The notes below the pieces were generated by a model that was not told the DNA's origin, searched no databases, and saw only the letters and a program-made list of their open reading frames with translations. From assembly GCF_003428155.1 (NCBI RefSeq), contig NZ_QLIR01000012.1:1-32000 (forward strand): a stretch of DNA of 32,000 nucleotides, read 5' to 3'. Positions 2,530 through 17,877 of this stretch are shown here, in pieces; the stretch's first letter is position 1, and each line of letters begins with the position of its first letter. The DNA comes from Fastidiosibacter lacustris. GTDB taxonomy: Bacteria > Pseudomonadota > Gammaproteobacteria > Francisellales > Francisellaceae. Made by a program: the position numbers and the translations under genes.

Positions 2530-2533
2530 TGCT

Positions 2534-3430
2534 TTACCCAAAATATTGAATCATTAATTTTTCAAGATCATTTATAAACACATCATAGTTATCTTTAGCT
2601 ATAATATTGTTGTCTAAATTAATTCTTCTTCCTGAAATACGAGCTAAAATTTTATCATTGCTTTTTATCGTTTTTTCTTTATTTTCCACACTCTCTTTTT
2701 TATTTAAAATTTTATCGACTTCTTGCTTAATTCTTTTTTCACCATATCCAAATTTAATCTTATCAGCTATAGCTATTAATGCTTTGTGGTATTTGTCGCC
2801 TTTGTTTGCTAGCGAAACAATTTCAATTGATGTCCGTGATGATACTTTACTCATATCATTAATAGCATTAACTATATCACTTGGTATCCTTGAAAAGGAT
2901 ATAAAATTCTTAATAGACGAGAGTGTTAAACCTACTTTGTGTGCTAAATCATCCTGTGTTATTTTTTCTGAATTTAAAATATTTGAATAGAAAATACCTT
3001 TTGAATAGTCAGATACACTTTCTTTTCTATTTTCATCTACAACACAAGCAATTGCATCACGGAATGAAAATTCTTTAACAATAGCTTCAACTTTTATATT
3101 TATGCTTTTACAAGCAAGCCATCTACGATAACCAGCGATTACAACGTATTTTGCTTCTTTGTTAGATTGGGCTTTAAATACATCATTTTGATTAGTTATT
3201 ACTATTGGCTGAGCTTGTCCATTATTTTTTATACTGTAGGCGAGTTCTTCTATATTCCCTAGCTCAAATTCTTTTCTGTCTCTATATTCCCAGTTATCAA
3301 TTTGACTTGTCTCAATAACTTCAACAGAACCAGCATAGCCCATAGCGCTTTTAGCATCTGCTAACCTTTCCACTATAACTTTATTTTCAGTTTCGGACTT
3401 TAAACTAAATCCATTATTTTTTTTACTCAT
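2534..3430 (-). CDS. parB: ParB-family partition protein
   Basis: 298 aa. The ParB/Srx box is PIVITNQ...YVVIAGYRRWLACK (GxRRxxA motif), followed by an HTH-like QDDLAHKVGLTLSSIKNFISFSRIP. It lies directly downstream of parA, and GGAG sits 9 nt before the ATG. Confidence 0.85.
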   Translation of the reverse strand: MSKKNNGFSLKSETENKVIVERLADAKSAMGYAGSVEVIETSQIDNWEYRDRKEFELGNIEELAYSIKNNGQAQPIVITNQNDVFKAQSNKEAKYVVIAGYRRWLACKSINIKVEAIVKEFSFRDAIACVVDENRKESVSDYSKGIFYSNILNSEKITQDDLAHKVGLTLSSIKNFISFSRIPSDIVNAINDMSKVSSRTSIEIVSLANKGDKYHKALIAIADKIKFGYGEKRIKQEVDKILNKKESVENKEKTIKSNDKILARISGRRINLDNNIIAKDNYDVFINDLEKLMIQYFG

Positions 3431-3446
3431 ATTAAAATCTCCAGAA

Positions 3447-3462
3447 AGTTACGCGCGTAACT
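3447..3462. promoter_or_regulatory. 16-bp perfect palindrome AGTTACGCGCGTAACT, copy 2 (20 bp with AAAG/CTTT flanks)
   Basis: Lies in the 33-nt parA-parB spacer. The extended palindrome AAAGTTACGCGCGTAACTTT spans 3445-3464. Confidence 0.6.
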
Positions 3463-3463
3463 T

Positions 3464-4093
3464 TTAATTTATATATTCTATAACTTCTTTTGCCAAACTT
3501 TTGAATTCTCTGTGTGAATCACTATCTGGCTGGTATTCTCCAACCCATAAACCATGAAATTGTGCTTCCATAACACAAGACTTTAAAGTTATATTAGTTT
3601 TAAATCCATTAAGCTCTGAAATCGAGCTTATTAATTCTTGAGATAAATTATGCCGTTTTTGTGTTCTTACTGCTAATAATCTATAAGGTTTCCTGCATTC
3701 ATCTGCAATTTCCATAGATTTAATTAAGGCTTTTTGGTCACTTAGACTAGGTGAAGATGGAATAATAACAAAGTCACTTGCCAAAGTTGCTTTAAAAGCT
3801 TCTCCTTGAAAATTTGGTGGCGTATCAATAATAATAAAATCATACTCATTTCTTAACTGATTAATCATTTCTTTTGGAGAGTCTTCACACAATAATGTAT
3901 CAACATCAAAGTTAGATATTCCAGTAGCCATACCCTGCTCTTTCCAACCTAATGCATCAGGCTTATCTTTATCAATATCTACAATTACAACTTTATAGTT
4001 AAAATCTTTAGCTAGCGACCACGCTAAGTTTACACTTGTTGCTGTTTTCCCTGCTCCACCTTTTCCTGAAATAACAGCTATAACTTTAGACAT
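3464..4093 (-). CDS. parA: ParA-family partition ATPase
   Basis: MSKVIAVISGKGGAGKT is the deviant Walker A (KGGxGKT). VVIVDID and FIIIDTPP are Walker A'/B-like. I prefer the start at ATG 4093 with GGAG upstream, because the tracked 20-aa N-terminal extension would cover the promoter. Confidence 0.9.
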   Translation of the reverse strand: MSKVIAVISGKGGAGKTATSVNLAWSLAKDFNYKVVIVDIDKDKPDALGWKEQGMATGISNFDVDTLLCEDSPKEMINQLRNEYDFIIIDTPPNFQGEAFKATLASDFVIIPSSPSLSDQKALIKSMEIADECRKPYRLLAVRTQKRHNLSQELISSISELNGFKTNITLKSCVMEAQFHGLWVGEYQPDSDSHREFKSLAKEVIEYIN

Positions 4094-4124
4094 AATTAAT
4101 ACTCCATTAATGAAACACAAAAAT

Positions 4125-4153
4125 ATTATATTATCTTTATAATTACTAGTCAA
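4125..4153 (-). promoter_or_regulatory. sigma70-type promoter of the par operon
   Basis: The minus strand reads TTGACT (4153-4148), a 17-nt spacer, then TATAAT (4130-4125). This lies about 30 nt upstream of the parA ATG. The palindrome copy 3 starts 13 nt upstream of the -35. Confidence 0.6.
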
Positions 4154-4167
4154 CTATTTAAATATAA

Positions 4168-4183
4168 AGTTACGCGCGTAACT
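4168..4183. promoter_or_regulatory. 16-bp perfect palindrome AGTTACGCGCGTAACT, copy 3 (operator/parS candidate)
   Basis: Lies between the rep stop (4189) and the parA promoter. The extended 20-bp palindrome spans 4166-4185. Confidence 0.6.
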
Positions 4184-4188
4184 TTTTA

Positions 4189-5724
4189 CTAAACCAAATC
4201 CGCAATAGCCACTCTAAGCATCATGATTTCTTTTTCTACCAGTCCTTTAGTTTGCTCGCTCGCTTCCATCAATTCTGATTTTTTCGCTTCTAACTCTGCT
4301 TTAAGCTTTGCAATCCTTTCTTCCTTGCTAGCAACTTCTAGTTCATCAACAAAAGACTTAATCTTACTGTAGTTTAAAATATCGCCCTTAAATCTAAGTG
4401 TTAAGTAATATGGCGACATACTTTCTAAATCTTCATACTGAGCTACAACATCTTTCAAGCATCTAAGCATATCAATCTCTAGTTCATCAGTAATTTTTTC
4501 TTTAACTTCATGTCTTGATAGTAAAACAAGTATTTGCTGTTCATTTTTATTTATATATGAATCAAAACTATTAAACCTTTCCATTTTTTGAGCTTTTCGA
4601 GCTTGTGTTGATTCCTCTACTGCATCCATTGTTGCTTTTATTTCTTGAGAACCAGAATTATTGCTTGCATTTTCAATACAAGAAACAAGGTAACCACTAA
4701 TATTATTGATTTCTCTGCCTTTTTGTATTTCGCCTAATAGCTTTTCAATTCCTAACTTACAAGCGTCCACACCATAGTTAGAAATATACTCTAAAACTTT
4801 CTTTTTAGGTATACCGTAGGCATGAAGTTGCGCTGATACAATTAGTGTTTGACCATCAAGTTTTATAATTGCTTTTTCTGATACTATTGAATTTTTATCT
4901 ACTTTATCAGTATATAATGATTCTAGTTTTTCACTAAAAATAGATTTTTCACCAAACTCAAATACAATTGTAGTAACTTTTCTTCCTGTTTTAATCTCCT
5001 CTAAGTTAACATATATATCAGTCTCATTTATTTCACCTATTATTTTATGTAGCACAGCTTTTTTAAACATTGAATAATTTGTACTGTAGACATTATGTAG
5101 ACCAACTCTAGTTTTATAATCCTCAACCGCTAATTTTAATTCATCTTTTTTTTTGTATTGATTAAGCCTCAACTTTAGAATGATGTATGTATCAAAAGTA
5201 TAATTATTTTTAAACTTAAGTACATCTGATATTTTAATTCGTGTGTAATGACAAAAAACTAATAAGTAAGGAAAAACTTTTTTGTCTATCTCAACTTCTA
5301 TACATCCAACAGTATCATTATATTTAAATTCTTCAAACCAACTTCGCTGTATATATGATTTTTTATTTAAAATATCATCAAGATTCGGTAAAGTTGCTAT
5401 GGAAGATTTTAATCCCTCGGTTATTTTTCTAATATCTCTAGCAAAATGTGCTTTTGTGATTCCAGTTAACGAAATAATGTCATCTTTAGAGAGCTTAAGA
5501 TTCCTAGATAAATGCCCAAGATCAACACTCTCAATATCTTCATTAGTCAATTCTTTTGATGTTATCTTTATTTTCTCTCGATAATAGTGTGATAGTATAT
5601 ATACAAACACCTTTATTTGATTGACATTCCATGTACTATGACCTCTTATCTCAGATAGTAAAGATGGGATGTAAGCCTGCATTTTATCTAGATCAATTTC
5701 CTGATTATTAATCATCATTCTCAT
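4189..5724 (-). CDS. rep: plasmid replication initiator (Rep_3/RepB-like winged-helix N-terminal half with a long coiled-coil-like C-terminal extension)
   Basis: The tracked ORF (to 5742) starts at TTG, and the first ATG is at 5724. The N-terminal half has Rep_3-like features (...YTRIKISDVLKFKNNYTFDTYIILKLRL...YKTRVGLHNVYSTNYSMFKKAVLHKIIGEINETDIYVNLEEIKTGRKVTTIVFEF). Tandem iterons lie immediately upstream. Confidence 0.8.
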   Translation of the reverse strand: MRMMINNQEIDLDKMQAYIPSLLSEIRGHSTWNVNQIKVFVYILSHYYREKIKITSKELTNEDIESVDLGHLSRNLKLSKDDIISLTGITKAHFARDIRKITEGLKSSIATLPNLDDILNKKSYIQRSWFEEFKYNDTVGCIEVEIDKKVFPYLLVFCHYTRIKISDVLKFKNNYTFDTYIILKLRLNQYKKKDELKLAVEDYKTRVGLHNVYSTNYSMFKKAVLHKIIGEINETDIYVNLEEIKTGRKVTTIVFEFGEKSIFSEKLESLYTDKVDKNSIVSEKAIIKLDGQTLIVSAQLHAYGIPKKKVLEYISNYGVDACKLGIEKLLGEIQKGREINNISGYLVSCIENASNNSGSQEIKATMDAVEESTQARKAQKMERFNSFDSYINKNEQQILVLLSRHEVKEKITDELEIDMLRCLKDVVAQYEDLESMSPYYLTLRFKGDILNYSKIKSFVDELEVASKEERIAKLKAELEAKKSELMEASEQTKGLVEKEIMMLRVAIADLV

Positions 5725-5743
5725 AAATTTATAAATCCACAAC

Positions 5744-5783
5744 TACTCTTAACTATAATTTCTCATACTCTTAACTATAATTT
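5744..5783. repeat. two 18-bp direct repeats TACTCTTAACTATAATTT (period 22) in the rep leader/promoter
   Basis: Copies at 5744-5761 and 5766-5783, between the iterons and the rep start. Each contains TATAGT on the rep strand. This could be a duplicated -10 or a Rep operator. Confidence 0.5.
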
Positions 5784-5819
5784 TTATTTAACTAAATGTA
5801 AATATATATATTTTATTTT

Positions 5820-6050
5820 TAGTTTATCTCACCATTCTTTTAGTTTATCTCACCATTCTTTTAGTTTATCTCACCATTCTTTTAGTTTATCTCACCATTC
5901 TTTTAGTTTATCTCACCATTCTTTTAGTTTATCTCACCATTCTTTTAGTTTATCTCACCATTCTTTTAGTTTATCTCACCATTCTTTTAGTTTATCTCAC
6001 CATTCTTTTAGTTTATCTCACCATTCTTTTAGTTTATCTTACCATTTAGT
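5820..6050. repeat. iteron array: 10 perfect + 1 degenerate tandem 21-bp repeats (TAGTTTATCTCACCATTCTTT)
   Basis: Counted by hand: units start at 5820, 5841 and so on up to 6009 and are all identical. The 11th unit (6030-6050) is TAGTTTATCTTACCATTTAGT. The units are head-to-tail with no spacers, adjacent to an AT-rich stretch (5786-5819) and upstream of rep. Confidence 0.9.
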
Positions 6051-6201
6051 TACTTTTATAAATATAATCAAACCTCTATAATCTCCTTATATAATAAGGT
6101 GTACAGCAAATAATAGCTAAAGCTAATTAATTAAGCTTTTAAGTTAGATTGTTTTATATTCAGCGTTTTGCAATCTATCTAATGGATAAATAATATAATA
6201 G

Positions 6202-6226
6202 ATCAATCTATCTAAGATAGATTGAT
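6202..6226. promoter_or_regulatory. 25-bp palindrome (12-bp arms ATCAATCTATCT / AGATAGATTGAT) followed by T6
   Basis: Inverted repeat with a 1-nt centre, followed by TTTTTT (6227-6232). A third, direct copy of the arm (CAATCTATCTAA) is at 6171-6182. This is either a protein-binding site in the ori region or a hairpin terminator on the + strand. Confidence 0.45.
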
Positions 6227-6275
6227 TTTTTCTTTATTACACTCTGTATCTTGAATATTTGATAAGCGTGTATAT

Positions 6276-6671
6276 ATGAAAAAGGGAATTTACTTTTCTT
6301 TCGATAAAGTAGGTGGTATTGAAAGATTAATTGAAGAAAAACCTACAGCGGCGAGAATATTCCTATTTCTATCAAAATATAGTAATGACGATAATGTAGT
6401 TGTTGCCTTAAGCTCTGTCTTAGAAACTGCTTTAAAAAAGACAAGACCATATTTAGCTAAGTGTGTTAAGTATCTAAAAGATAACGGATATTTAGCAGTA
6501 ATAAACTCAGGGCAAACATCAGTATACATTTTTAATAATGATATATTGATTTCAAATAAGTACGATAATGAATATAAAAATATTGAAGTGTTAAATGCAA
6601 CCTTGTTTTTATCGCCAAAAGAGTCAATAGCCAAAAATAAACAACGTCAAACCTTCAATGAAAAGGTCTAA
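6276..6671 (+). CDS. hypothetical winged-helix protein (RepL-like / MarR-like wHTH)
   Basis: 131 aa. AARIFLFLSKYSNDDNVVVALSSVLETALKKTRPYLAKCVKYLKDNGYLAVINSGQTSVYIFN has the pattern of a wHTH (helix-turn-helix then a beta-wing). It is divergent from rep across the iterons. The antisense ORF 6290-6634 looks like low-complexity noise. Confidence 0.5.
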   Translation: MKKGIYFSFDKVGGIERLIEEKPTAARIFLFLSKYSNDDNVVVALSSVLETALKKTRPYLAKCVKYLKDNGYLAVINSGQTSVYIFNNDILISNKYDNEYKNIEVLNATLFLSPKESIAKNKQRQTFNEKV

Positions 6672-6676
6672 GTAGA

Positions 6677-7477
6677 ATGAGAATAATAAAAATCATCACT
6701 ATCTATACTTTAATTTTACCAACAATTATTTTAGCCTATGATTTGTCGCAAAAAACTCAAGCAGATCAAATAATACGATTAAGTAAGGAAGATGGTGTAT
6801 ATCACCCTAAATTAAAAATAAAAGGAATCGATAATAAACAAAGCAAACGTAATGTATATCAAAATGAGTATGGTGTTGTTGTTATTGTCTCCAACCAAAG
6901 CTTAATTAAAATATTACATAAAGCTAATGACTTAGCATACCAAAACCCTAAATTTCGTCCAACAACAACTCCTCATATTACTATAGTTCAAGGGGTGTAC
7001 AAAGGCGATAAATTTATTCAGTTACAAAAAGCAGTTAAATCAATTGCTGAACATACGTTTCCATATGTAGTTACGATGCAAAACAGCTTCACTAAAGGTG
7101 GCGGTGGAAATACATTTCTCAATGTATCTGATGGCAAATATTTTTTTGACAGATTAACAACCTATATGACGAATAAAGTTCAACCAGATGCACCAATGAA
7201 GCAAACACTTGACGATATTGAAGCTGGAGTTGCAGATTTAAAAGAGATGCATGTTGGTGGAGCATGGAGAGATTTTAATTTGCCATATAATAATAATCCT
7301 CATATTACAGTTGTGTACGGTAAGAATGATCCAAGTTTACTGAGGAACCTAAATGAAATTATTCAACCACAATCACTATCATTCATAGCAAAAGCAATAT
7401 CTATTTATCAAATAGATGAAGTTGGCAATTTATATGGTAAGCCATTATATCAAGTAAACTTTAACTTAGAGCCATGA
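6677..7477 (+). CDS. exported 2H-phosphoesterase superfamily protein (LigT / cyclic phosphodiesterase-like)
   Basis: 266 aa. The N-terminus is hydrophobic (MRIIKIITIYTLILPTIILAYD). Two H-x-T-x motifs, PHITIVQG and PHITVVYG, lie about 110 residues apart, which is the defining feature of the 2H fold. Confidence 0.6.
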   Translation: MRIIKIITIYTLILPTIILAYDLSQKTQADQIIRLSKEDGVYHPKLKIKGIDNKQSKRNVYQNEYGVVVIVSNQSLIKILHKANDLAYQNPKFRPTTTPHITIVQGVYKGDKFIQLQKAVKSIAEHTFPYVVTMQNSFTKGGGGNTFLNVSDGKYFFDRLTTYMTNKVQPDAPMKQTLDDIEAGVADLKEMHVGGAWRDFNLPYNNNPHITVVYGKNDPSLLRNLNEIIQPQSLSFIAKAISIYQIDEVGNLYGKPLYQVNFNLEP

Positions 7478-7526
7478 TTAAAGAGTTAGAAACAAAAGGC
7501 GCTTTGCATTATCAGATGTTCAACGA

Positions 7527-8021
7527 ATGTCGGAAATAAACTCATGCGAAGAAGTTATGAGATTTTTTCCGAAGATATACACATTTGAGGATACATTAAA
7601 CTTTGTTAAAAATGTGATAAAAAAGTATGAAAATAATGACTTAGCGGTATATGCTTGTGTATCTAAATCAAACAATACTTTTATTGGTTCTGTTGGGATT
7701 ACATATCATAATTTTAAATCTTTTTTTACGCCATGTTATGAGGTCGGTTGGAGGCTTGATAAACAATATTGGAACGAAGGGTATGCTACCGAAGCAGCTA
7801 AGGGTGTCCTAAATTATGGATTGATCGAATTATGTATCGATGAGATTGTTTCTTATTCGCCAGTTATAAACACAGGATCAATAAGGGTAATGCAGAAAAT
7901 AGGTATGAAGTTTTATCAAGAATACTTCAATCATACGTTGTGGGATAAAAATAGCCCGCTATCAAAACATATTTTGTATAGAATAACCCGCGAAGAGTAT
8001 TTGCGAGATTTGAAAAAATAA
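7527..8021 (+). CDS. GNAT N-acetyltransferase (RimJ/RimL-like, Acetyltransf_3), apparently 5'-disrupted by a frameshift
   Basis: VGWRLDKQYWNEGYATEAAKGVLNYGL...IRVMQKIGM is a typical RimJ/L-like GNAT core. The expected N-terminus (M.KELETKR...L) is encoded upstream in another frame from ATG 7474 (see findings). Confidence 0.75.
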   Translation: MSEINSCEEVMRFFPKIYTFEDTLNFVKNVIKKYENNDLAVYACVSKSNNTFIGSVGITYHNFKSFFTPCYEVGWRLDKQYWNEGYATEAAKGVLNYGLIELCIDEIVSYSPVINTGSIRVMQKIGMKFYQEYFNHTLWDKNSPLSKHILYRITREEYLRDLKK

Positions 8022-8252
8022 ATAGAGATATTAAGCAAACTTAAAATGATTAACCAGACACAGCTAAAGCAAATAAATAAACAACAAAATGGCTGAATGT
8101 GTAATGTAAGCTTGATTTTCAAAGGATAGTTTTGTAGTTTTGCGGTTAGAGAATTTAGTATGTATGAAAATCGACACTAAAAATCGGTTGAATGATGCGT
8201 AAAGTAGTGACTTATATTGAAAGATAGTGCCTTTTTTTGCAATAAAAAATAT

Positions 8253-9536
8253 ATGACTGATAACAAATTGGTGCTGTATTTCTGTACTATTTTTTTAGCC
8301 ATTGCACTTTACATAGACCTGTCATCCTTGTATAAGGATAAAAAATATGAATTTTTCCAACAACAAGCTACAATAGATGAAAATTTACAGTATCTTCAAA
8401 GTGGTTATGTTCATCTAATTGATCAATTGACCGAAGCGATTGTACAGAATAAAAAGCAGAAAAATCCTTCTGAGGAAGTGATATTACAAACCATCAGAAA
8501 GTATTACGCGACTTTAGAAAAAATAAGTGCTGAATGGGTCAATATTGTCTGGTATGACGGAAATGATTCAATGTTTATTAATCAACTTGGAATTGCTAAT
8601 TATCGCAATAAAAGCAAGGTTAATAACCTTTTTAGTTACTGCAAACCTCTAATTTACTTAGATAATACTATTAATGGCAGAGTCTGTATTGAAGTTAGTT
8701 TCAACGCATTAGAAAATTACCTTTCAGCGTTATTGTCTGAGGATGTATTATTGTTTGAAGACCACTATGCGGTAGAAAGGCATTATGATAAGAAAGTTTT
8801 TACAATCCAATTTTTAAATAAAACAACGTGGGTATTAGTGCCTGATAAACCAATATTTTCGCAATTTAATATCGCAAAGTATGTTTATTTCTTTATCGGC
8901 AGTAGTATTGTGGTGCTGATAATTAGAAGACATAAACGTCAATTAATGCGTCAACACAAAAAGCATCAACGAGTTGTCAAAGCGTTTGCGGATGAAAAAG
9001 GATTGTATTGTCAATTATTGCAGTATCACCATGGTGCCAATTATTGTGATTTTATTGACCGATATAGGATTGATTCATTGGTTAACGCTTTTGATCAAGA
9101 GATACGTTCTTTGAATTTAAACGTTGTTACTTCTATTGATGAAGCGGTCTACCAACATCAATTTAATATTTTTGCATTGCAAACTTTGCTGTTGCATTTT
9201 ATAGGAGAAGCAATTTCTAATATACAGAAAAAGGGTGAAATTAGTATTAAGCTTGATGTGGAAAATGATAATTATATTCATTGTGTTTATTCTGATAATT
9301 GTTATGTTTTTGCTGAAGAAAACCGATTTAGTGGCAAAGAAGTGACGCAATCAGATTATTTTCATTACTTTAAACTCACTAATCAACAGATCATTTGCTT
9401 TATAGAAAAGCATTATATTGAAATTGTTACAGAAGTATCAAAGTATCAGGGAAAGCAGATACTGATAAAGTTACCTTTGAATCAAACGACCAAAGAATAT
9501 AATGTTGTAGCTATGTTTGATAAGGAAGAATTATGA
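8253..9536 (+). CDS. membrane sensor-like protein with a degenerate histidine-kinase ATPase-like C-terminal domain
   Basis: The tracked ORF starts at TTG 8217, and the first ATG is at 8253. There are two predicted TM helices (LVLYFCTIFLAIALYIDL and YVYFFIGSSIVVLII) bracketing about 185 aa. The C-terminus resembles HATPase_c: LLLHFIGEAISNI (N-box-like), IHCVYSDNCYVF (in place of DxGxG) and GKQILIKLPL. I see no H-box. Confidence 0.5.
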   Translation: MTDNKLVLYFCTIFLAIALYIDLSSLYKDKKYEFFQQQATIDENLQYLQSGYVHLIDQLTEAIVQNKKQKNPSEEVILQTIRKYYATLEKISAEWVNIVWYDGNDSMFINQLGIANYRNKSKVNNLFSYCKPLIYLDNTINGRVCIEVSFNALENYLSALLSEDVLLFEDHYAVERHYDKKVFTIQFLNKTTWVLVPDKPIFSQFNIAKYVYFFIGSSIVVLIIRRHKRQLMRQHKKHQRVVKAFADEKGLYCQLLQYHHGANYCDFIDRYRIDSLVNAFDQEIRSLNLNVVTSIDEAVYQHQFNIFALQTLLLHFIGEAISNIQKKGEISIKLDVENDNYIHCVYSDNCYVFAEENRFSGKEVTQSDYFHYFKLTNQQIICFIEKHYIEIVTEVSKYQGKQILIKLPLNQTTKEYNVVAMFDKEEL

Positions 9537-11899
9537 AGATGCTGCAAAAAGTACCAATAGTGCTATTTTTAATATTTAAAACTTTTTCGATTTGTTTTGC
9601 GGATATTGCTTTAATGGTAAATGTCCCGATGGCTAACAATCTGTTTGTTGGTAGAGATGATTATTTAACAAATATGCACACTTATTTATTAAAGCACAAC
9701 ATAATCACACTGTATGGCTCTGGTGGTATTGGTAAAACACAAATTGCAAAGCAGTATACTTATAGATATCACAATGATTATGAGATTGTGTGGTGGATTA
9801 AATCAAACGAAGATTTGACGAAACAGATTCAGTTGATGATAGAAAAATGGAATGAATCTGCTTCTGTTGAAAATAAGATCATCCTCAGCAAGCAAATTGA
9901 GGTTGATCTAAAACATCTTCAGGAAGTTATTCAATCATCTCAATATCATTGGCTGATTATTTTAGATGATTATGATAAAAATTTAATTGTATTAGAAAAA
10001 TTTGTTGCACAGATTGCTAAAATGGCTCAAGTTAAGCTAATTTTGACCAATCGTGACGGAACCGTAATTTTAGGTGATCATAAAATGAATATTAAGCAAT
10101 TTACTCGAAAGGAATCGTTGGAGTATTTAAAGCAATTTTCTAATCCAGAGAATAGGGATGATCTAATCAGTCATCAGATGTTGGCGGAATTACTTAGTGA
10201 TTATCCTTTGTCAATAGCGTCTGCTTTTGCCTACATAGAAACGTTGCCCATCACGGTGAAAGATTATATAGGATTATATAAGAGTTGTGTTGGTGATATT
10301 AAGAAAATAGAGGGAGATGTCGTTTCACGTCTTGGTAAAAACTATGTTGATCGGTATGGGATGACATTACAGACAACCGTTAACATTTCATTAGAAAAAA
10401 TAAGTCAAGATTATCCTTTGGCGATCGAGATATTAAAATTGATGACACTGGTTGATAATAAAAGCATTCCTGAAGATTTACTTCTGAACTATTTATCTAT
10501 TGATAAGGTAAAATATAGCGAGGCAATACATATTTTGATGGCATATGGTTTAATTGAGTATTCTGATAGTAAAGCATCTTTTAGATGTCATGATGAGCTT
10601 CATAGAGCGTTTAATTTTTACTTTGATGAGAATGAGTTAAAGTATTTATTGCCTAAGATTATTGCTAGTATTAATTCATTACTTTCAGAAGATATTTTCT
10701 ATCTAAATGTGTTTATAGCGAAGCAGCGAAGTTTTATTAAGCACATTGAGAAATTGTATCAGCATGCGCAACGGTTTGGCTTTGTTAATAATGAGTTAAT
10801 TCGATTAAAGACTAAACAATTGGAATTTGTACTGACTAATCAGCGAGATAAGCAAGCAGCAAATAAGGTGATAAATGAAATAACTCAGTTAATAGCGAAA
10901 CTTGAAGATCAGAAAAGTAAGGTAGATAGTTTGGTTAAGGCAAGATTTTTATTAATGCAGAGTACCTATACAGACTGGATGTTAGCAGATTATAAGCTTT
11001 CAACACAGCAAGCAAAAGAAGCTGAGTATTTAATTGAACAAATTCATTCGCAGTCGATTAATAGAGAAAAATTAATGTTGGCAACAAGACTGTCTCAGGT
11101 GTATGCATATCAGGGTGATTATAATAAAGCATTAATCTATGTTGCTAAAGGTGAAGATATTATTGCTAAAGATAAGTCAGCAAATATAGCTTTTTTAACC
11201 ATTTTAATGGCTTCAAAATCAATAGGTTATTACCATCAGGGAGATTTTAAAAAAGCGGCAGATATTGAAAAAACAGCTACCGAGTCGGCATCTTCTAATG
11301 ACAGTAATAACATGGTATATCAAAAAGGGAATGTGTTTGCCATTCCTTTATTACTTGATAAATATCGTATGATGATTAAGGCAAAAGAATCGCTAAACGA
11401 GAGTTTAACGAAATTAACTGAAATGGAACACGATATTATCTCATTTTATGGAGAGCATAATTATTTTCTGAATAAGCTGTATTTTGCTAAAGCAGATTGT
11501 CTTTTTGCACTGGGTGAGTTTACTGAAGCCAATATTTATATAGACAAAGTATTACCACATATTCAAGGTGATGATATATCGAATGCTAAAATTAACCCTA
11601 TTATTGTGATACAGGCAATTAAGCTAAAAGGCGATATACTGAGAAGCTTAGGCAATTATGTTGAAGCAGAGTCTTATTATCTGTACGCAGAAAGATTATC
11701 AAATAAATATTTCACCTATAAAGCAGTACAGGATATTAGTGATTTATATATCAGCATGGTTATCAACAAATTAGATAGATATGATATTCATGGCGCGTTA
11801 GCGTATAAACGCAAGCATGATAAGCTTTTTGGAAAGCAGCATTCGGGTTATTATAAAATTACTTTGTATTTAAAGGAAAAAAGCTCAGATGGACAGTAA
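9533..11899 (+). CDS. STAND NTPase: NB-ARC-like P-loop domain + C-terminal TPR array, with an N-terminal hydrophobic helix
   Basis: 788 aa. Motifs: FVGRDDYL...LYGSGGIGKTQIAKQY (Walker A), HWLIILDDYD (Walker B), KLILTNRD (RNBS-B-like) and LSDYPLSIASAF (GxPL-like). Several TPR-like units are present (SQVYAYQGDYNKALIYVAKG, GYYHQGDFKKAADI, CLFALGEFTEANIYIDKV, LRSLGNYVEAESYYLYAE). The start ATG overlaps the upstream stop (ATGA) and is preceded by AAGGAAG. Confidence 0.8.
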   Translation: MKMLQKVPIVLFLIFKTFSICFADIALMVNVPMANNLFVGRDDYLTNMHTYLLKHNIITLYGSGGIGKTQIAKQYTYRYHNDYEIVWWIKSNEDLTKQIQLMIEKWNESASVENKIILSKQIEVDLKHLQEVIQSSQYHWLIILDDYDKNLIVLEKFVAQIAKMAQVKLILTNRDGTVILGDHKMNIKQFTRKESLEYLKQFSNPENRDDLISHQMLAELLSDYPLSIASAFAYIETLPITVKDYIGLYKSCVGDIKKIEGDVVSRLGKNYVDRYGMTLQTTVNISLEKISQDYPLAIEILKLMTLVDNKSIPEDLLLNYLSIDKVKYSEAIHILMAYGLIEYSDSKASFRCHDELHRAFNFYFDENELKYLLPKIIASINSLLSEDIFYLNVFIAKQRSFIKHIEKLYQHAQRFGFVNNELIRLKTKQLEFVLTNQRDKQAANKVINEITQLIAKLEDQKSKVDSLVKARFLLMQSTYTDWMLADYKLSTQQAKEAEYLIEQIHSQSINREKLMLATRLSQVYAYQGDYNKALIYVAKGEDIIAKDKSANIAFLTILMASKSIGYYHQGDFKKAADIEKTATESASSNDSNNMVYQKGNVFAIPLLLDKYRMMIKAKESLNESLTKLTEMEHDIISFYGEHNYFLNKLYFAKADCLFALGEFTEANIYIDKVLPHIQGDDISNAKINPIIVIQAIKLKGDILRSLGNYVEAESYYLYAERLSNKYFTYKAVQDISDLYISMVINKLDRYDIHGALAYKRKHDKLFGKQHSGYYKITLYLKEKSSDGQ

Positions 11900-11931
11900 T
11901 AGTGATTATTTAGCAGGTTTTTTTATACTAT

Positions 11932-12435
11932 TTAGAAATATTGCTTAATAATCCATTCTGCAAAAACCTGATCAGGTGAATTTAGTTTTTTTGAGAGAGA
12001 AAATTCATAAATTTCGCTGATGGCTTTTACAGAAGTTTTGGTATCTATAAAAGGAATATTTTTTTCTTTAACTATTTTGTCATAAACTTCGACACATTGT
12101 AAAAAATACTTTTTATGCCATTCTAATTTCAGGTCAATTTTGCTTGAGGTATCACGTAAAGATGGGAAAACTTGGTAGTTTAATTTTTCTTCTCCTATAA
12201 TTTCTTCAATAGAAACATGAAAAAATCTGGCTAATGGAATTAACGTTTGAACTTTGGGAATACCTCTAGCCATGGTAAGTTGATGCAGAGTATTTGGTAA
12301 AATACCTGTTGCATCAGCTAATTCGCTGATAGTAATACCTCTTTCGATAATGAGTCTTTTTAAAATGACGGCAAACTTTTTGGTGAGAGTGTTGACTTCA
12401 AGAGGTTTTATTTCAGGTTCTTTTTGTGCAGACAT
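11932..12435 (-). CDS. XRE-family HTH transcriptional regulator with an uncharacterised C-terminal domain
   Basis: 167 aa. ILKRLIIERGITISELADATGILPNTLHQLTMARGIPKVQTLIPLARFFHVSIEEII is a classical HTH_3/XRE domain. It is convergent with the STAND gene and divergent from the transfer region. Confidence 0.8.
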   Translation of the reverse strand: MSAQKEPEIKPLEVNTLTKKFAVILKRLIIERGITISELADATGILPNTLHQLTMARGIPKVQTLIPLARFFHVSIEEIIGEEKLNYQVFPSLRDTSSKIDLKLEWHKKYFLQCVEVYDKIVKEKNIPFIDTKTSVKAISEIYEFSLSKKLNSPDQVFAEWIIKQYF

Positions 12436-12523
12436 TATTTGAATATCTATATTTTATCATGAGCTATAAAATAGCAAAAAATGTGTTTAAAAACAAATTA
12501 AAAAGAATTATGCAAAAAAGTTG

Positions 12524-12552
12524 TTTACATACAAATTAATTGTTAATACAAT
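12524..12552 (+). promoter_or_regulatory. candidate sigma70 promoter facing the transfer region
   Basis: TTTACA (12524-12529), a 17-nt spacer, then TACAAT (12547-12552). It lies in very AT-rich DNA, so a chance match is possible. It sits about 360 nt upstream of the first tra-side ORF. Confidence 0.3.
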
Positions 12553-12911
12553 AAATTAATGTTATTTTATAATTTGTTTAACTATTGATGTTTAAACTTA
12601 GAAGATGGGTTTCAACTTTGCTGATAAAATTTTAGCGGAAAAAGACTTATGTTATCTAGGCAGTAATTGAAAAGCATATCGTTTAGCCAGCATTGTTAAA
12701 GTTAAGATTTAATTAAATGACTAAAAATTTACAAGAAGGACTTCACCGAAAGTTTGGCGACTAGAGAGTGAAGCCCTAAGAAAGAACTGATCAAAGATCA
12801 GCAGGTCAATATTAGACGAGATTTGCTTATTCGTAAATAGGTCTATCCGATTCGCTTTTCTTTATTTCAGTCAAATGAACCTGTTTAACAACGAGAATAA
12901 AGGAGTGTTTT

Positions 12912-13094
12912 GTGCTAACAAAAAACATCCAGCTTCGTGCAAAGGTACATCGACCATTGCGTCAATATTGCCTGGATCACGATACAACGATTACGGATGC
13001 TATCAGTGAGATTGTTGGCAAGTATTTGATTAGCAAGGGTTATACGCTGGCTGATCCAAGAAAGTTAAGCGGTGATTTTAAACAGAGCAAATAA
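12912..13094 (+). CDS. ribbon-helix-helix-like small DNA-binding protein (TraY-like position)
   Basis: 60 aa with a GTG start, preceded by AAAGGAG 6 nt upstream. KNIQLRAKVHRPLRQYCLDHDTTITDAISEIVGKYL fits the strand-helix-helix layout. It is the first ORF on the transfer-operon strand. Confidence 0.5.
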   Translation: MLTKNIQLRAKVHRPLRQYCLDHDTTITDAISEIVGKYLISKGYTLADPRKLSGDFKQSK

Positions 13095-13413
13095 GTTTAT
13101 ATCCAGTTTTGAACTGGTCGGTTTATCACACCGTCAACCTGATCACTCTATAGCGGTCAGGTAAAAGTGAGCTTGCAATTATTAGCACTAACAATAATGC
13201 AAAAAATAGAACAACCGCTGTGATATGATGTTGGGAAAGTAACAAGTACCGTCAAATCAGCCTAAAGCGTTAAACGCGTGACTAAAGTCGAGGCTCATCT
13301 AGCAAGTTGCCCAAATGGAGTGGGGGATTTTTTTATCATTAAATATATCAATGTGCATTGATTATATAGGCTCAGTGTTCATTAGTGTATTTAATGAAAA
13401 GGAGAGAGACAGG

Positions 13414-13734
13414 ATGATTTTAAAATTCAATAAATCAAAACTCAAGTTAATTCAGTCACATAAAACCTATACTGGAGCAAGTGAAGAATATAATAGTGAT
13501 AAGATCAATTGCAAAGCAAAAGAGCTAATGAATACCAATCCCAACATCACAAGACAAAGCGCTTATGATAAAGCCAGACAAATTTGCAACAAAGGCAAAA
13601 ATATAGGTAAAAAGATTAAGCTTGCTATTCATGACGAAACAGTGCGCAGCTTAGCACTTGCCTATAAGAGGACTAAGGGGATGTCAAATCGACAAGCTTA
13701 TCGTCAGGCATGTAGGCAGCTAGCAATAAATTGA
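13414..13734 (+). CDS. hypothetical basic protein with an internal duplicated motif
   Basis: The start is taken at Met34 of the tracked ORF (ATG 13414), preceded by AAAGGAGAGAG. It contains two similar segments, ITRQSAYDKARQIC and MSNRQAYRQACRQL. Confidence 0.5.
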   Translation: MILKFNKSKLKLIQSHKTYTGASEEYNSDKINCKAKELMNTNPNITRQSAYDKARQICNKGKNIGKKIKLAIHDETVRSLALAYKRTKGMSNRQAYRQACRQLAIN

Positions 13735-13994: not shown

Positions 13995-14078
13995 ATGGAC
14001 GGTGAAGACGTTACTGAAAGTGAAGAAGCAGAAAAAATTGAAATTGAGTTTAAAGCAGCTCAACAGCTGTTTGAGTAA
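13995..14078 (+). CDS. possible 27-aa acidic micro-ORF
   Basis: MDGEDVTESEEAEKIEIEFKAAQQLFE*, preceded by AGAGG 8 nt upstream. It is too short for the ORF track, and there is no other support. Confidence 0.25.
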   Translation: MDGEDVTESEEAEKIEIEFKAAQQLFE

Positions 14079-14133
14079 GGCTATACTCTAAAAATTTAAA
14101 CACTCTACAGTGAGGTAATAAAGTGAGGTAATT

Positions 14134-14382
14134 ATGTCCAAATCATTAGATAAAGTGAAAAAAGGTTGGAAAACCTACCGCAAGTACGAAAATAAAGCAT
14201 CGGTACCGATTTTTCTGTTTTTTAAGCTTGTGTTGATTGTATCTGTTTTATTTTATGTGACCCCTAGCGCAAGTGATAAAAGCTATTTTATTGCGTTTGT
14301 TGTACTGGTTGTCGTGGTGATATCCTCATGTATTGGCGTATGGGTAAAAAAGAAAAATCAATATAATCGCAAGGATAAGTAG
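14134..14382 (+). CDS. small two-TM membrane protein
   Basis: 82 aa with Lys-rich termini and two hydrophobic helices (VPIFLFFKLVLIVSVLFYV and YFIAFVVLVVVVISSCIGVWV). TGAGGT lies 5 nt before the ATG. Confidence 0.55.
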   Translation: MSKSLDKVKKGWKTYRKYENKASVPIFLFFKLVLIVSVLFYVTPSASDKSYFIAFVVLVVVVISSCIGVWVKKKNQYNRKDK

Positions 14383-14487
14383 CAGCTAAGGTACAGTATT
14401 TACTGCGCTTATTTTCTTTATTTTTAAATATATTTTATTTTTTTAGTTTTTAGTTAATTCAATATTCATTCAATCTAAGGAATCATC

Positions 14488-15204
14488 ATGAGAATATTTA
14501 AACCTATTGGCTTTTGTCGTGCTATGCATAGGGTAGCAGTGATCTCGCTTTTTGCTTTTGGCAGTGTAACGATTCATCCGTTGTATGCGGCAAGCTATCG
14601 GCTGGAGCCAATTAATGATTTAAGCAGTTATTATCAAGCAAACGATCATCAAGATTATTATGGTGATGATCCTCATGGTAAAAATGATAAATCGTTTTTA
14701 GGTGGCACCTTTAATTACTCAATACCACAGGCATCATTAGCTCATTCAAGCAAAAGTAGCGGTCATTATGGTTTTGGTGTGTTTGGCGGACAGGCATTTT
14801 ATTTGAATCAAAAGAATCTATTGGGGTATCAAATTGGCTTAAATGCCAATGCCAAATCGAGTTTTGCACAATTTGGGACGTTAAACAGACAGGTCAACGT
14901 GTCATTGTATGATCTTTACCTGCTTGGACAATATCATTTTGCGGTTAGTAACACATTTTTAGTGGGAATATCGGTGGGGGCTGGGTACGTCTACGGTTGG
15001 GTTGAAAACAATCCAGCCATAGGCTACTTTGGTCGATTTGAACCGATTGTTGGGGCGCAAATGGCGTGGTCAATCACAAATCAGGTTGCGTTGAATGCAA
15101 GCTACTTGCATTACTTTGGTGTTGCTAGTGATCGAGCTTATCAGTCGCGTCAGGCTTCACCATCAATCGATCGCATCAGTATCGGGGTGAGTTATGTATT
15201 CTAA
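14488..15204 (+). CDS. outer-membrane beta-barrel protein (small OMP, OmpX/Ail/OmpA-barrel-like)
   Basis: 238 aa. Signal peptide ending ...IHPLYA|AS, alternating aromatic/Gly-rich strands (GFGVFGGQAFY, GISVGAGYVYGW) and a C-terminal ...ISIGVSYVF with terminal Phe, as in OMP beta-signals. Confidence 0.7.
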   Translation: MRIFKPIGFCRAMHRVAVISLFAFGSVTIHPLYAASYRLEPINDLSSYYQANDHQDYYGDDPHGKNDKSFLGGTFNYSIPQASLAHSSKSSGHYGFGVFGGQAFYLNQKNLLGYQIGLNANAKSSFAQFGTLNRQVNVSLYDLYLLGQYHFAVSNTFLVGISVGAGYVYGWVENNPAIGYFGRFEPIVGAQMAWSITNQVALNASYLHYFGVASDRAYQSRQASPSIDRISIGVSYVF

Positions 15205-15502
15205 AAAGCATTCGATATTAGGCGATAGCAACTTACGTTGGCGGTGGATCTCATCGTTTATTGGTATTGCAATAGCGATTATGGTTTTAGTTTTTTTAAT
15301 GTTGATGACAGGCTGTGCCAGTCAAACCAAGCCGTTACCGATTTATAAACAAGTTGAAGTGCCAACGGTTAAAGCCTATCAGGAGAAAGTCAATCATGTA
15401 CAAAATTATGTGTATCGTGCAGATCATTCGGCACGTTTTAAGTCGTTAAGTGAATCAATGAGTGAAAAAAGAGGGGATATGAAGATGCAAATACAATTTT
15501 AA
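15194..15502 (+). CDS. putative lipoprotein
   Basis: 102 aa. A hydrophobic leader is followed by the lipobox-like LMTGC|ASQ. It overlaps the OMP gene end by 11 nt. Confidence 0.55.
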   Translation: MYSKKHSILGDSNLRWRWISSFIGIAIAIMVLVFLMLMTGCASQTKPLPIYKQVEVPTVKAYQEKVNHVQNYVYRADHSARFKSLSESMSEKRGDMKMQIQF

Positions 15503-15600
15503 TCAGAAGCATCGATTATTCATTCAGACATTAAAGGTAATGAATTAGGTAGAAAAAAATAAACCAAAATTAAAAAATCAAACAAAGAGGATAAACCATT

Positions 15601-15975
15601 ATGAATCATCAAATTTTTAATCTTACAACCGAAATAGACGTAAAAACAAAAGCAGAGGCAGGAACAAAAAACAGCCAATGGCGTGTGTTTTCTCAGCACT
15701 TTATTGAACAGAGTAAATTATGGTTGGTAGCACTGTGTTTTGTCATGGTGGTGATGATGCTGATGACTGGATTCAGTTATGCTGGTAATAAGGAAATTAT
15801 AGTACAAATTGATACGGTGACAGGTCCTGCTTCCTGGATTCAGAAGATGTTTGCTGTAGGGGCATTAGTTTCTGGCTTGATTGTCATGTTTGTGCAAAAG
15901 CATATTGTGTTAGGTATTGGTATTATTGGTTCGGTGTGGGGTGCTTTAGCCGTTTATAACGCTGGTTTATTTTAA
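15601..15975 (+). CDS. traA: F-type pilin precursor (TraA-like)
   Basis: 124 aa. A long leader ends ...GFSYA|GNKE. The roughly 63-aa mature part has two hydrophobic segments separated by a basic QKH, as in F propilin. It lies immediately upstream of traL-traE. Confidence 0.7.
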   Translation: MNHQIFNLTTEIDVKTKAEAGTKNSQWRVFSQHFIEQSKLWLVALCFVMVVMMLMTGFSYAGNKEIIVQIDTVTGPASWIQKMFAVGALVSGLIVMFVQKHIVLGIGIIGSVWGALAVYNAGLF

Positions 15976-16000
15976 CTGATCTTAACAAGAGGTATTGAGG

Positions 16001-16309
16001 ATGGATCGCTCAGAACAAGGCGATTTTTATCGCGTATCTAAATTTCTGAATCAACCACGGCGTATTTTAGGCTGTACGATGGATGAGTTTATTCCTGCAT
16101 TTACAGCTATTTTGGTGGGCTTGTTTTTATCGTGGTTATTAAGCTCACTTATTTTTGCAGGCACGTGGGTGTTTACCATTAAATATCTCAAAAGCAAATA
16201 TGGCGCTTCCTTTTTAATGGTAGGGATTTATTGGTACACGAGCGCGACCATTTCACGCAACTTTTTCCCGAAAACGCCACCCTCTGACTATAAGTATTGG
16301 TTGAGTTAG
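16001..16309 (+). CDS. traL: type-F conjugative transfer protein TraL
   Basis: FYRVSKFLNQPRRILGCTMDEFIPA...KYLKSKYGASFLMVGIYWY parallels F TraL ([24 protein letters not shown]...KKLKKGRGSSWLRDLIYWY). The ATG at 16001 is preferred over the tracked TTG at 15995. Confidence 0.9.
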   Translation: MDRSEQGDFYRVSKFLNQPRRILGCTMDEFIPAFTAILVGLFLSWLLSSLIFAGTWVFTIKYLKSKYGASFLMVGIYWYTSATISRNFFPKTPPSDYKYWLS

Positions 16310-16404
16310 TTTGTTTGATTACGCTCATCTTTTTTATTTTTTAATTAGCGCATAACAACAGACATATTGAACAATAATTTTCTTGGGTATAACGAGGATA
16401 AGGC

Positions 16405-16986
16405 ATGGAATATCAACAGTATCAAGGTTCATTAGCACATTTTAAAAAAATGAACCGTTATTTAACCATTGTGCTTTTGGCAATGGCAGTGGCTTTAGTT
16501 GGGATGAGCATTGCAGTCTATCGTGCGATTGGACACAAATCAGTGGTATTGATGCCACCTGTTTTAACCCAGCAGATGACCATTTCAGATGTCATGCCTG
16601 ATGCGGCTTACTTGCAGCAAATGGGGTTGTTTTTGGTGAGTTTGCGTTTAAACATCACCCCAAGCAATATTGACAATCATTTTAAAACCTTTTTAACGCA
16701 TGTTAATTCAAGCATCTATGGACAAGTGTCAGTTGAATTAGATGAGGAAATCAAGGCGGTACAGCGTGGACGGATTACCTCAGCGTTTTACCCACGAGAA
16801 CAATTAATTAATCCGCATGACTTATCGGTCAAAATCACGGGGCGCTTGGATAAATATGTCGGTAATCGACAGATATCCAGTAAAGATCAAACGTATCTTT
16901 TAACTTTTGATTACAACCAAGGTCATCTATCTATCATTGATTATTATCGTTTAGAGAGTAATCAAGATAAGGCAACAAAAAAATAA
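16405..16986 (+). CDS. traE: type-F conjugative transfer protein TraE
   Basis: An N-terminal TM, then DAAYLQQMGLFLVSLRLNITPSNID, close to F TraE (DASYLQQMALSFIALRLNVSSETVD). Synteny is traL-traE-traK. Confidence 0.9.
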   Translation: MEYQQYQGSLAHFKKMNRYLTIVLLAMAVALVGMSIAVYRAIGHKSVVLMPPVLTQQMTISDVMPDAAYLQQMGLFLVSLRLNITPSNIDNHFKTFLTHVNSSIYGQVSVELDEEIKAVQRGRITSAFYPREQLINPHDLSVKITGRLDKYVGNRQISSKDQTYLLTFDYNQGHLSIIDYYRLESNQDKATKK

Positions 16987-17008
16987 AGCTATAAAAAGAG
17001 GATGTCTC

Positions 17009-17794: not shown

Positions 17795-17877
17795 CACCAG
17801 TGTGTTAAACGTCTAACTATTCAAAAGCGAAAAAAGCGAAAAAAGGAAAAGTGCGCCAGTAATCTATGAGGTAAGCC

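Follow-up and report, generated by a model that had tools for sequence, protein, structure and literature searches.

A plasmid-borne cassette of a degenerate membrane histidine kinase, an NB-ARC/TPR STAND NTPase with a predicted secretion leader and an XRE regulator in Fastidiosibacter lacustris and other Proteobacteria

STAND/NLR-type NTPases are regarded as cytoplasmic sensors that carry their own effector, and Avs-like sensors work in the cytoplasm. Here we describe a three-gene cassette in a 32,000-nucleotide (nt) stretch of DNA from Fastidiosibacter lacustris (the window, on which all positions are numbered). Its NTPase (gene 2) belongs to a clade that, as a whole, has a predicted secretion leader in place of the effector and is linked to a probably kinase-dead transducer (gene 1) and an XRE-family repressor (gene 3). 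An original prediction, made from the letters of the window alone, had seen in genes 1 and 2 a candidate sensing or defence module. The three genes are:

8217 to 9536, plus strand: gene 1, 439 amino acids (aa), putative membrane pseudo-histidine kinase; the alternative start ATG 8253 would give 427 aa
9533 to 11899, plus strand: gene 2, 788 aa, STAND NTPase with leader, NB-ARC and TPR parts
11932 to 12435, minus strand: gene 3, 167 aa, convergent XRE-family regulator

WalK of the Firmicutes is a Cache/PAS-like membrane sensor kinase under the outward-facing accessory proteins YycH and YycI, an arrangement that resembles genes 1 and 2. These accessory proteins begin with a hydrophobic anchor, and their genes directly follow that of the kinase in one operon. 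However, WalK is catalytically active and works with a response regulator, whereas gene 1 appears dead and no receiver protein was seen nearby, and YycH and YycI contain no NTPase or TPR, whereas gene 2 is a STAND NTPase. In Rhizobiales, the Sec-exported TPR/Sel1-like repeat protein ExoR binds the periplasmic domain of ExoS and sets its output; we propose a comparable role for gene 2, that of an exported repeat protein which controls a sensor-kinase homologue from outside. Unlike gene 2, ExoR has no NB-ARC and no translational coupling to its kinase, and ExoS phosphorylates ChvI. RetS uses a kinase fold as a binding and transducing module and not as an enzyme, as gene 1 may do, but it keeps most catalytic motifs and acts on GacS, whereas gene 1 lacks the lid and the His and its likely partner is the XRE protein. 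Gene 2 has its NB-ARC motif set and its TPR sensor at the C-terminus in common with FxsT, with HTH- or TIR-fused NB-ARC-TPR proteins and with Avs-like sensors. In contrast to these bacterial NB-ARC/TPR STAND NTPases, gene 2 has a secretion leader at its N-terminus, as predicted below, and a constant pseudo-kinase partner, and a literature search found neither feature described.

For the output side, the RapI-PhrI/ImmR-ImmA system of ICEBs1 offers a works-like analogy. There, a TPR sensor of a mobile element controls an XRE-family repressor and hence the transfer genes, and the ICEBs1 Xre structure was among the weak HTH matches of gene 3. RapI is, however, cytoplasmic and without NTPase, and ImmR is cleaved by the ImmA protease, whereas no protease or peptide gene was seen with the cassette. 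Lastly, the F-type conjugative Rickettsiales amplified genetic element (RAGE) of Rickettsia and Orientia is reported to carry proteins with an HATPase_c domain ('HK') as well as TPR proteins, part of which have Sec signals (PMC10732058, PMC4316617). An F-type tra region is likewise present in the plasmid of the window, and the cassette occurs on Rickettsiales plasmids, which makes the RAGE cargo a possible relative; a tblastn search of gene 2 against the plasmid collection gave no record from the genus Rickettsia. Each part of the cassette comes from a known superfamily, with important departures in genes 1 and 2 and a family-specific C-terminal domain in gene 3. A literature search found no description of the three-gene cassette and no PADLOC model matched it credibly, in agreement with the original prediction, which did not recognise the pair as a named system.

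Contigs with homologues of gene 2 (25-86% identity) were looked up, one genome per species being scanned, and the triad was found in about 22 loci at 15-35% identity in two proteobacterial classes. These loci belong to plasmids and other mobile elements in Fastidiosibacteraceae and Rickettsiales. It takes the form of a 440-620-aa protein with two transmembrane (TM) helices directly upstream of gene 2 and a convergent XRE gene of 143-184 aa that often overlaps the gene 2 stop codon. Besides the window, the loci come from Cysteiniphilum (L001/L014), metagenomes (L002-L013), a Midichloriaceae metagenome-assembled genome (MAG; L015), alphaproteobacterial MAGs (L016-L025, L087), Megaira plasmids (L094) and the Ac37b plasmid (L095). 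The named hosts are F. lacustris, Cysteiniphilum halobium, a Candidatus Midichloriaceae MAG, Rickettsiales bacterium UBA6177 and uncultured Alphaproteobacteria, and complete deposited plasmids carry the triad in Candidatus Megaera polyxenophila (three records) and Rickettsiales bacterium Ac37b. Public annotation of the genes is generic (hypothetical protein, TPR protein, ATPase, HTH regulator). The alphaproteobacterial upstream proteins were too divergent for a simple hidden Markov model; hhalign nevertheless joined the gamma- and alpha-types of gene 1 (probability 99.3%, E=6.9e-21) in an alignment of 378 columns that starts in the outer domain and reaches the C-terminal tail. The pair first recognised in the window is thus adjacent and overlapping in unrelated genomes as well.

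At the junction of genes 1 and 2 the window reads taAGGAAGaattATGAag, where the Shine-Dalgarno (SD) sequence AAGGAAG is followed by four bases and then by the ATG of gene 2 (9533-9535), which overlaps the TGA of gene 1 (9534-9536). The ATGA overlap and an SD within gene 1, both part of the original prediction, are therefore borne out by the letters.

9522 to 9536, plus strand: SD AAGGAAG (9522-9528) and ATGA stop/start overlap (9533-9536)

Genes 1 and 2 overlap by 4-40 nt also in L001, L006, L009, L010, L011, L013, L018, L094 and L095. An overlap that is kept in such divergent loci is consistent with translational coupling, and gene 2 is probably coupled to gene 1 in this way. The start of gene 1 is ambiguous between TTG 8217 and ATG 8253, the latter being the NCBI choice. 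Since the Cysteiniphilum orthologue has Ile at the Met of ATG 8253, the upstream start is favoured.

Gene 2 combines the following parts:

9533 to 9601, plus strand: Sec-type leader (residues 1-23) with n/h/c layout, MKMLQKVPIVLFLIFKTFSICFA, predicted cleavage before D
9620 to 10597, plus strand: NB-ARC module (about residues 30-355), from the invariant columns of alignment A3 and the Pfam and NCBIfam alignments; it contains NxP..N..FxGR, Walker A at residues 62-69 (nt 9716-9739), Walker B LIILDD at 141-146, TNR at 172-174, PL at 225-226 and the MHD-like H353
10730 to 11896, plus strand: C-terminal helical/TPR repeat region (about residues 400-788), from Pfam TPR

Pfam NB-ARC (PF00931) matched gene 2 above its cut-off (3.7e-11), and TPR models matched at residues 484-540 (TPR_12), 649-674 (TPR_2) and 697-723 (TPR_16/8/1). 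Among 12 members of the family, which are 18-86% identical, G62, G65, G67, K68, T69, D145, T172, P225, L226 and H353 are invariant; the sensor-1 Arg (R174 in the window, in the T-x-R motif) is not. The invariance of these switch motifs indicates that the nucleotide switch of gene 2 is under selection. A complete NB-ARC motif set followed by some 400 aa of TPR-like repeats had been read from the window before, and both the Pfam matches and the family alignment agree with it. The NCBIfam model FxsT (NF040586) gave 2.2e-40 and 138.9 bits against a cut-off of 300, along profile positions 1-269 only. No Fxs genes lie beside gene 2, whose neighbours are gene 1, the XRE gene and rep/tra genes, and gene 2 falls outside FxsT by this cut-off.

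Family scans of gene 2 found no effector or output domain (nuclease, protease, TIR, SIR2 or HTH) and no other domain, as was originally noted. The N-terminal effector or DNA-binding output that is usual in this superfamily is missing from all 20 members, in which a hydrophobic leader of 23-56 residues alone precedes the NB-ARC. Distant relatives have HTH_3 or TIR at the same N-terminal position. The HTH_3-fused relatives tie NB-ARC/TPR modules to XRE-type outputs, although this would fit a cytoplasmic gene 2 too.

What stands in place of the effector looks like a Sec-type leader. Counted up to the NB-ARC start, all 20 leaders show a positively charged n-region (+1 to +7) that is followed by a hydrophobic core and by a (-3,-1) site, with a small residue at -1 and a permitted one at -3. 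In several of them the core shrinks to 12-15 uncharged residues, fewer than a stable TM helix needs. In 19 of the 20 the N-flank carries no less positive charge than the C-flank, and in 16 strictly more; from these flank charges an N-in/C-out orientation is predicted. The leader ends, with a slash at the predicted cleavage site, read:

window: ..FSICFA/D
L006: ..IDVKA/N
L011: ..DTCYA/E
L016: ..QSASA/K
L087: ..QDAMA/T
L025: ..TEANA/E
Megaira: ..NKAMS/S
Ac37b: ..NDCIA/I

These calls come from a simple rule-based heuristic, whose rules do not separate a cleaved signal from an N-in anchor. Applied to the proteins of the window it flags TraK, TraU, TraN, an outer-membrane beta-barrel protein and a lipoprotein-like open reading frame (ORF), and none of resolvase, ParA, ParB, Rep, GNAT, XRE, TraB/TrbI and TraC. 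A lipoprotein signal and a Tat signal were considered for gene 2 and rejected, as it has no lipobox and no twin-arginine motif. Whether cleaved or anchored, the bulk of gene 2 is predicted to face the periplasm. The original prediction had mentioned about 30 hydrophobic residues before the NTPase; the short stretch is real, but its layout in 20 of 20 members is that of a Sec-type leader.

Gene 1 has the plan of a sensor kinase, to which its parts are assigned as follows:

8268 to 8330, plus strand: TM1 (about residues 18-38), a hydrophobic helix in the AlphaFold2 (AF2) model, N-in by the leader heuristic
8331 to 8870, plus strand: putative extracytoplasmic alpha/beta sensor domain (about residues 39-218), from the AF2 secondary-structure order
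8871 to 8927, plus strand: TM2 (about residues 219-237) from the AF2 model, followed by the basic stretch RRHKRQLMRQHKKHQR
8928 to 9110, plus strand: DHp-like helical region (about residues 238-298) without a conserved His, aligning to DHp alpha-2 of ThkA
9111 to 9479, plus strand: degenerate CA (HATPase_c-like) domain (about residues 299-421), with Glu331 at the N-box Asn and no G2 box or lid
9480 to 9533, plus strand: C-terminal tail with N429-[IV]-[IV]-x-[LIMF] and the acidic end ..FDKEEL

In the AF2 model, built from 11 family sequences (mean confidence score pLDDT 76), a long helix and then an alpha/beta domain of about 180 aa come after TM1, and TM2 runs into another long helix that leads to a second alpha/beta domain. 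This agrees with the topology of two TM helices around about 185 aa that had been proposed. From this secondary-structure order the outer domain may be labelled Cache/PAS-like; it can be aligned across the family, and G154 is invariant in the 7-sequence alignment A1. A profile of seven gene 1 members searched against PDB sequences matched ThkA (E=2.4e-5, DHp helix 2 and N-box) and also HprS, KinB and ZraS. Foldseek of the model against the PDB gave 183 matches at E<=1e-3, and the 50 best of them all belong to sensor histidine kinases or to phytochrome/LOV kinase modules. Highest among these was the full-length WalK-YycH model 9a5d_A (E=1.2e-11), and HK853, RetS (6dk7/6dk8), ThkA-CA (TM-score 0.66 on the target) and ZraS were also found. 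In six gene 1 homologues Pfam HATPase_c matched below threshold (2.3e-4 to 0.03) and always within profile positions 1 to 59-72, the N-box-to-G1 half, never in the lid half; neither gene 1 nor any homologue scanned reached the cut-off. The outline of an HATPase_c domain that had been seen in gene 1 is thus upheld by profile and structure searches and does not look like a chance resemblance.

While gene 1 keeps the overall TM-sensor-TM-DHp-CA kinase fold by Foldseek and PDB profile, three other hallmarks of a sensor kinase were not found. Firstly, there is no conserved His column in the DHp region of alignments A4 and A6 that could serve as phospho-acceptor (H-box); 'SLNH[NS]F' occurs in L009 and L013, and the same position is E or N in L024, L025 and L023. 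Secondly, the N-box Asn position varies (E/N/S/K/R/M; Glu331 in the window), the G1 box is reduced to D360-N361-x-Y363, and the G2 box and the ATP lid segment are absent from the family alignments. Thirdly, no receiver-domain gene of a response regulator was found in the gene tables of the loci and among their Pfam-scanned neighbours, which comprise part of the flanking ORFs; the neighbour that is conserved is the XRE protein, which lacks a receiver. Because the catalytic motifs are lost, phosphotransfer by gene 1 is very unlikely and the protein is in all probability a pseudokinase. The original prediction had argued the same from the change of Asn to Glu and the missing H-box; its statement that the DxGxG box is lost holds for the motif as such, but the remnant D360-N361-x-Y363 survives.

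The best-conserved feature of gene 1 is its tail, N429-[IV]-[IV]-x-[LIMF], with an Asn that is invariant in A1 and A6 and is matched by hhalign between the gamma- and alphaproteobacterial subfamilies. Many gene 1 proteins have an acidic end after this motif (..FDKEEL, ..EVEEEL, ..ESDEV, ..SNDEV) which resembles the EEVD-type tails bound by TPR clamps; it is not universal, as L009 ends in ..LFPSP. An amyloid-signalling (BASS/HET-s-like) pair formed by N-I-I-x-L of gene 1 and I-I-N-L-P of gene 2 was considered and rejected, because N-L-P..N..F-x-G-R is an ordinary NB-ARC start, where the FxsT profile alignment begins. The gene 1 family is rare: a search of 1.84 billion representative proteins gave 11 clusters at E<=1e-3. 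Direct scans of the window gene 1 with Pfam, NCBIfam, PADLOC and PHROGs gave nothing usable, and a word-indexed protein search with the 7-sequence alignment returned three known close relatives only.

Gene 3 belongs to the XRE/Cro-CI group by an HTH_3 match (PF01381) above cut-off at residues 25-79 (5e-8), and its HTH profile matches include SinR and the prophage repressors of 434 and P22. Its C-terminal domain is specific to the family, with E141, Y143 and D155 invariant and F158 and W161 nearly so (alignment A7). By hmmsearch, gene 3 lies convergent downstream of gene 2 in 19 of the 22 loci, either directly or past one inserted gene (L009, L024, L095). On its other side it is divergent from rep/tra leader genes, namely a DnaA-like gene in Megaira, an AlpA-like HTH gene in the MAGs and the tra region in the window and L001. 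The original prediction had taken the XRE regulator for a flanking marker. Judged from this comparison, gene 3 is instead a co-evolving third member of the cassette with a C-terminal domain of its own, and not its boundary. Two sets of repeats accompany it:

12474 to 12501 and 12512 to 12539, no strand: 28-nt direct repeats in two copies (86% identity, 38 nt apart), with a TGTTT..AAACA-type dyad in either copy
11904 to 11953, no strand: 12-nt inverted repeat (11904-11915 / 11942-11953) that spans the 32-nt gap between the convergent stop codons

The direct repeats are 39-104 nt upstream of the gene 3 start, in a 476-nt gap before a 60-aa ORF (12912-13094), and a promoter-like plus-strand site (12524-12552) overlaps the second of them. 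We consider them a candidate operator of gene 3. The inverted repeat, weak and AT-rich, is possibly a bidirectional terminator; the terminator scan did not call it.

The triad is flanked upstream by Rep3/ParAB and downstream by the tra region in the window, and by ParA/DUF2786/DnaB and TraL/E/K in Cysteiniphilum. Divergent from gene 3 are a hypothetical gene and a DnaA-like plasmid initiator in Megaira, and an AlpA-like HTH_17 gene with conserved genes of unassigned function in the MAGs. The cassette adjoins replication and transfer control genes rather than defence genes. The defence- or addiction-island context that had been suggested for the pair was therefore not recovered, since its neighbours are Rep, ParA, DnaB, DnaA-like, AlpA-like HTH and Tra genes, and the phosphoesterase/GNAT cassette named as part of that context is not conserved with the pair. 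Some elements have additional genes. L095 (Ac37b plasmid 1) alone has an extra 427-aa TPR-repeat gene (6308-7591) between gene 2 and the XRE gene. In alphaproteobacterial elements a protein of about 200 aa starting with M-[LF]-x-[VI]-I-E-P follows the AlpA-like gene downstream of the XRE gene, sometimes in two copies:

L017, 7382 to 7990: about 200-aa protein
L018, 7376 to 7972: same
L019, 7365 to 7973: same
L021, 7320 to 7928: same
L025, 6215 to 6793 and 6973 to 7686: same, two copies

It had no Pfam match where scanned (L017, L025), nor had the following protein of about 450 aa in L017.

We tentatively read the cassette as an exported STAND/TPR co-sensor, a pseudo-kinase transducer and an XRE repressor output that controls the mobile element, a reading to which we give somewhat less than an even chance. 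Gene 2 would be exported, or anchored facing the periplasm, and act as a ligand-sensing co-receptor on the outer domain of gene 1, with which it would form a stoichiometric complex. Its TPR array would bind the cue and the nucleotide switch would govern oligomerisation. A conformational signal could then cross the membrane via gene 1, whose dead DHp/CA module and conserved tail would bind or release the XRE repressor, and the repressor would set the expression of the adjacent replication and transfer genes. In this scheme we infer the export of gene 2, the contacts between genes 1 and 2 and between genes 1 and 3, the ligand and the regulatory targets; the folds, the kept and lost motifs, the features of the leader, the gene overlap, the synteny of the triad and its place beside rep/tra genes are observed.

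Several findings weigh against this scheme. The leaders of L009, L018, L019, L021 and L022 are long enough for uncleaved anchors, and the HTH-fused relatives of gene 2 are cytoplasmic. Gene 3 is missing from 3 of the 22 loci (L012, L022, L023), in which the place after gene 2 is taken by insertion sequences or other genes. In 2 of the about 22 loci a further gene lies within the cassette: in L009 a SoFic-type Fic gene (4719-5867; PADLOC SoFic E=5e-119; Pfam Fic_N and Fic) between gene 2 and the XRE gene, and in L024 a 382-aa gene at the same position (6486-7634), PADLOC having scored the L009 gene only. The periplasm is normally without ATP, so that the conserved nucleotide motifs argue for a cytoplasmic location unless a host supplies nucleotides. 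This conflict between the intact switch and the predicted periplasmic site is the most interesting point of the cassette.

A host could provide such a supply. Rickettsiales import host ATP across their envelope with Tlc translocases. Caedibacter taeniospiralis belongs to the Fastidiosibacteraceae, as does Cysteiniphilum, an emerging pathogen (PMC7297999, PMC10228398). As the carrier lineages are intracellular or host-associated and Rickettsiales take up host ATP, a periplasmic NB-ARC could be loaded with nucleotide only in a host cell. Gene 2 might thus load host ATP/ADP that enters via porins only inside a eukaryotic cell, and the cassette would sense the host together with an energy state or ligand and time the replication or transfer of the plasmid or integrative and conjugative element (ICE). 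We regard this specific proposal as unlikely. If it holds, it would give an NLR-type switch both a new cellular location and a new use. Export by itself, if true, would mean an NLR-type switch that operates outside the cytoplasm, a concrete example of a pseudo-histidine kinase as transmembrane relay, and a handle on the timing of replication and transfer in plasmids and ICEs of Megaira, Midichloriaceae, other Rickettsiales and Fastidiosibacteraceae.

The conflict over ATP would disappear if gene 2 stayed in the cytoplasm as part of a membrane-tethered STAND defence or abortive-infection module, along the lines of the original prediction. Its N-terminus would then be an uncleaved anchor packed on the TM helices of gene 1, the TPR array would sense an invader protein, and oligomerisation would make the pseudo-kinase or the N-terminal helix itself damage the membrane, while the XRE protein would merely regulate expression, as CapH does for CBASS. 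The intact nucleotide-switch motifs, an NB-ARC/TPR architecture typical of Avs/NLR-like sensors and the N-terminal TIR of relatives are what such a module would show, as is the carriage of the cassette by mobile elements. The uncharged stretch of some leaders is 21-36 residues long, and a TPR clamp could bind the acidic end of gene 1 (..EEL/..DEV). However, the leader charges predict N-in/C-out, the opposite of the orientation required, several leader cores have only 12-15 residues, and the fold of gene 1 is that of a full signal transducer and not of a pore or enzyme. The SoFic-type gene of L009, with the gene at the same position in L024, also favours defence, and no locus showed any other credible tie to a catalogued defence gene, but replication and transfer genes, not defence genes, are the neighbours, and many hosts are obligate intracellular bacteria. 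PADLOC gave no credible match for gene 1 or gene 2 of the window or for their L009 and L094 homologues (best NsnC, 0.021, for gene 2, and mad8, 0.006), nor for the window neighbours, among which the XRE gene showed a weak similarity to CapH (E=3.7e-4) that would suit this explanation. We therefore judge it rather unlikely, and the defence reading of the pair is not the best-supported one. A sensing switch carried by plasmids seems to describe the cassette better than a phage-defence system does.

Export of gene 2 could also serve another end. Gene 2 might leave the cell via Sec and then the outer membrane (e.g., through TolC or in vesicles) as an effector that mimics or hijacks Apaf-1/NLR-type signalling of the host, with genes 1 and 3 only regulating its expression. 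ATP is at hand in the host cytosol, every gene 2 member has a Sec-type leader, and the family occurs in Rickettsiales, Midichloriaceae, Megaira and Fastidiosibacteraceae. Precedents can be named as well, since TPR proteins of the Orientia RAGE, some with Sec signals, are considered putative effectors (PMC10732058) and NB-ARC proteins occur in the eukaryotic association module of Wolbachia phage WO (PMC6133264). An effector would leave unexplained why gene 2 is so strictly linked, by overlap and co-divergence, to a sensor-bearing membrane pseudo-kinase. Moreover, no eukaryote-like motif was found in it beyond NB-ARC/TPR, and its NB-ARC module is closest to bacterial FxsT-type proteins. This makes a host effector quite improbable.

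Decay is seen in a few loci. In L002-L005 (JGI metagenomes) gene 1 is truncated or split (pieces of 93 and 330 aa), gene 2 is split into 617 + 159 aa and the start/stop overlap is lost, a broken form that recurs on seven contigs. The gene 2 of L020 is likewise broken, into 168 + 677 aa. That the cassette is decaying or neutral cargo, three hitch-hiking plasmid genes without a coherent joint function, would fit these broken copies and the loss of gene 3 from L012, L022 and L023, but is highly improbable given that order, orientation and start/stop overlap are kept at 15-35% identity across two proteobacterial classes and that functional motifs are invariant in all three protein families.

By gene tables and family scans, the window as a whole has the layout of an F-type conjugative plasmid. 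A resolvase, ParB, ParA and the Rep3 initiator are encoded on the minus strand at 1-5.7 kb, and TraK, TraB/TrbI, TraC, TraU and TraN from 17 kb on. The G+C content steps from about 27-36% in the replication and cargo part (1-13000) to 36-44% in the tra part (14000-32000), and the GC skew switches sign near 6 kb, the same place as the flip in gene orientation. Nucleotide and tblastn searches of the plasmid collection gave no match to the window DNA or to the window gene 1.

Two further genes of the window were noted beside the cassette. The ORF at 6677-7477 (plus strand) encodes a 266-aa protein with a weak match to the 2H phosphoesterase / 2'-5' RNA ligase superfamily (PF13563, 3.5e-4, below cut-off) and a leader-like N-terminus, MRIIKIITIYTLILPTIILA followed by YD, which the leader heuristic flagged. 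Its product may be an exported cyclic-nucleotide or RNA-end phosphoesterase beside an exported NTPase. The phosphoesterase and GNAT genes were rejected as members of the module, as they are not conserved with the pair in other loci. Between gene 3 and the tra region, a 139-aa ORF (13315-13734, plus strand) matches the Pfam family Mistic (membrane-integrating protein) at 3.7e-6 and 27.3 bits against a cut-off of 26, a match that is unexpected outside Bacillus.

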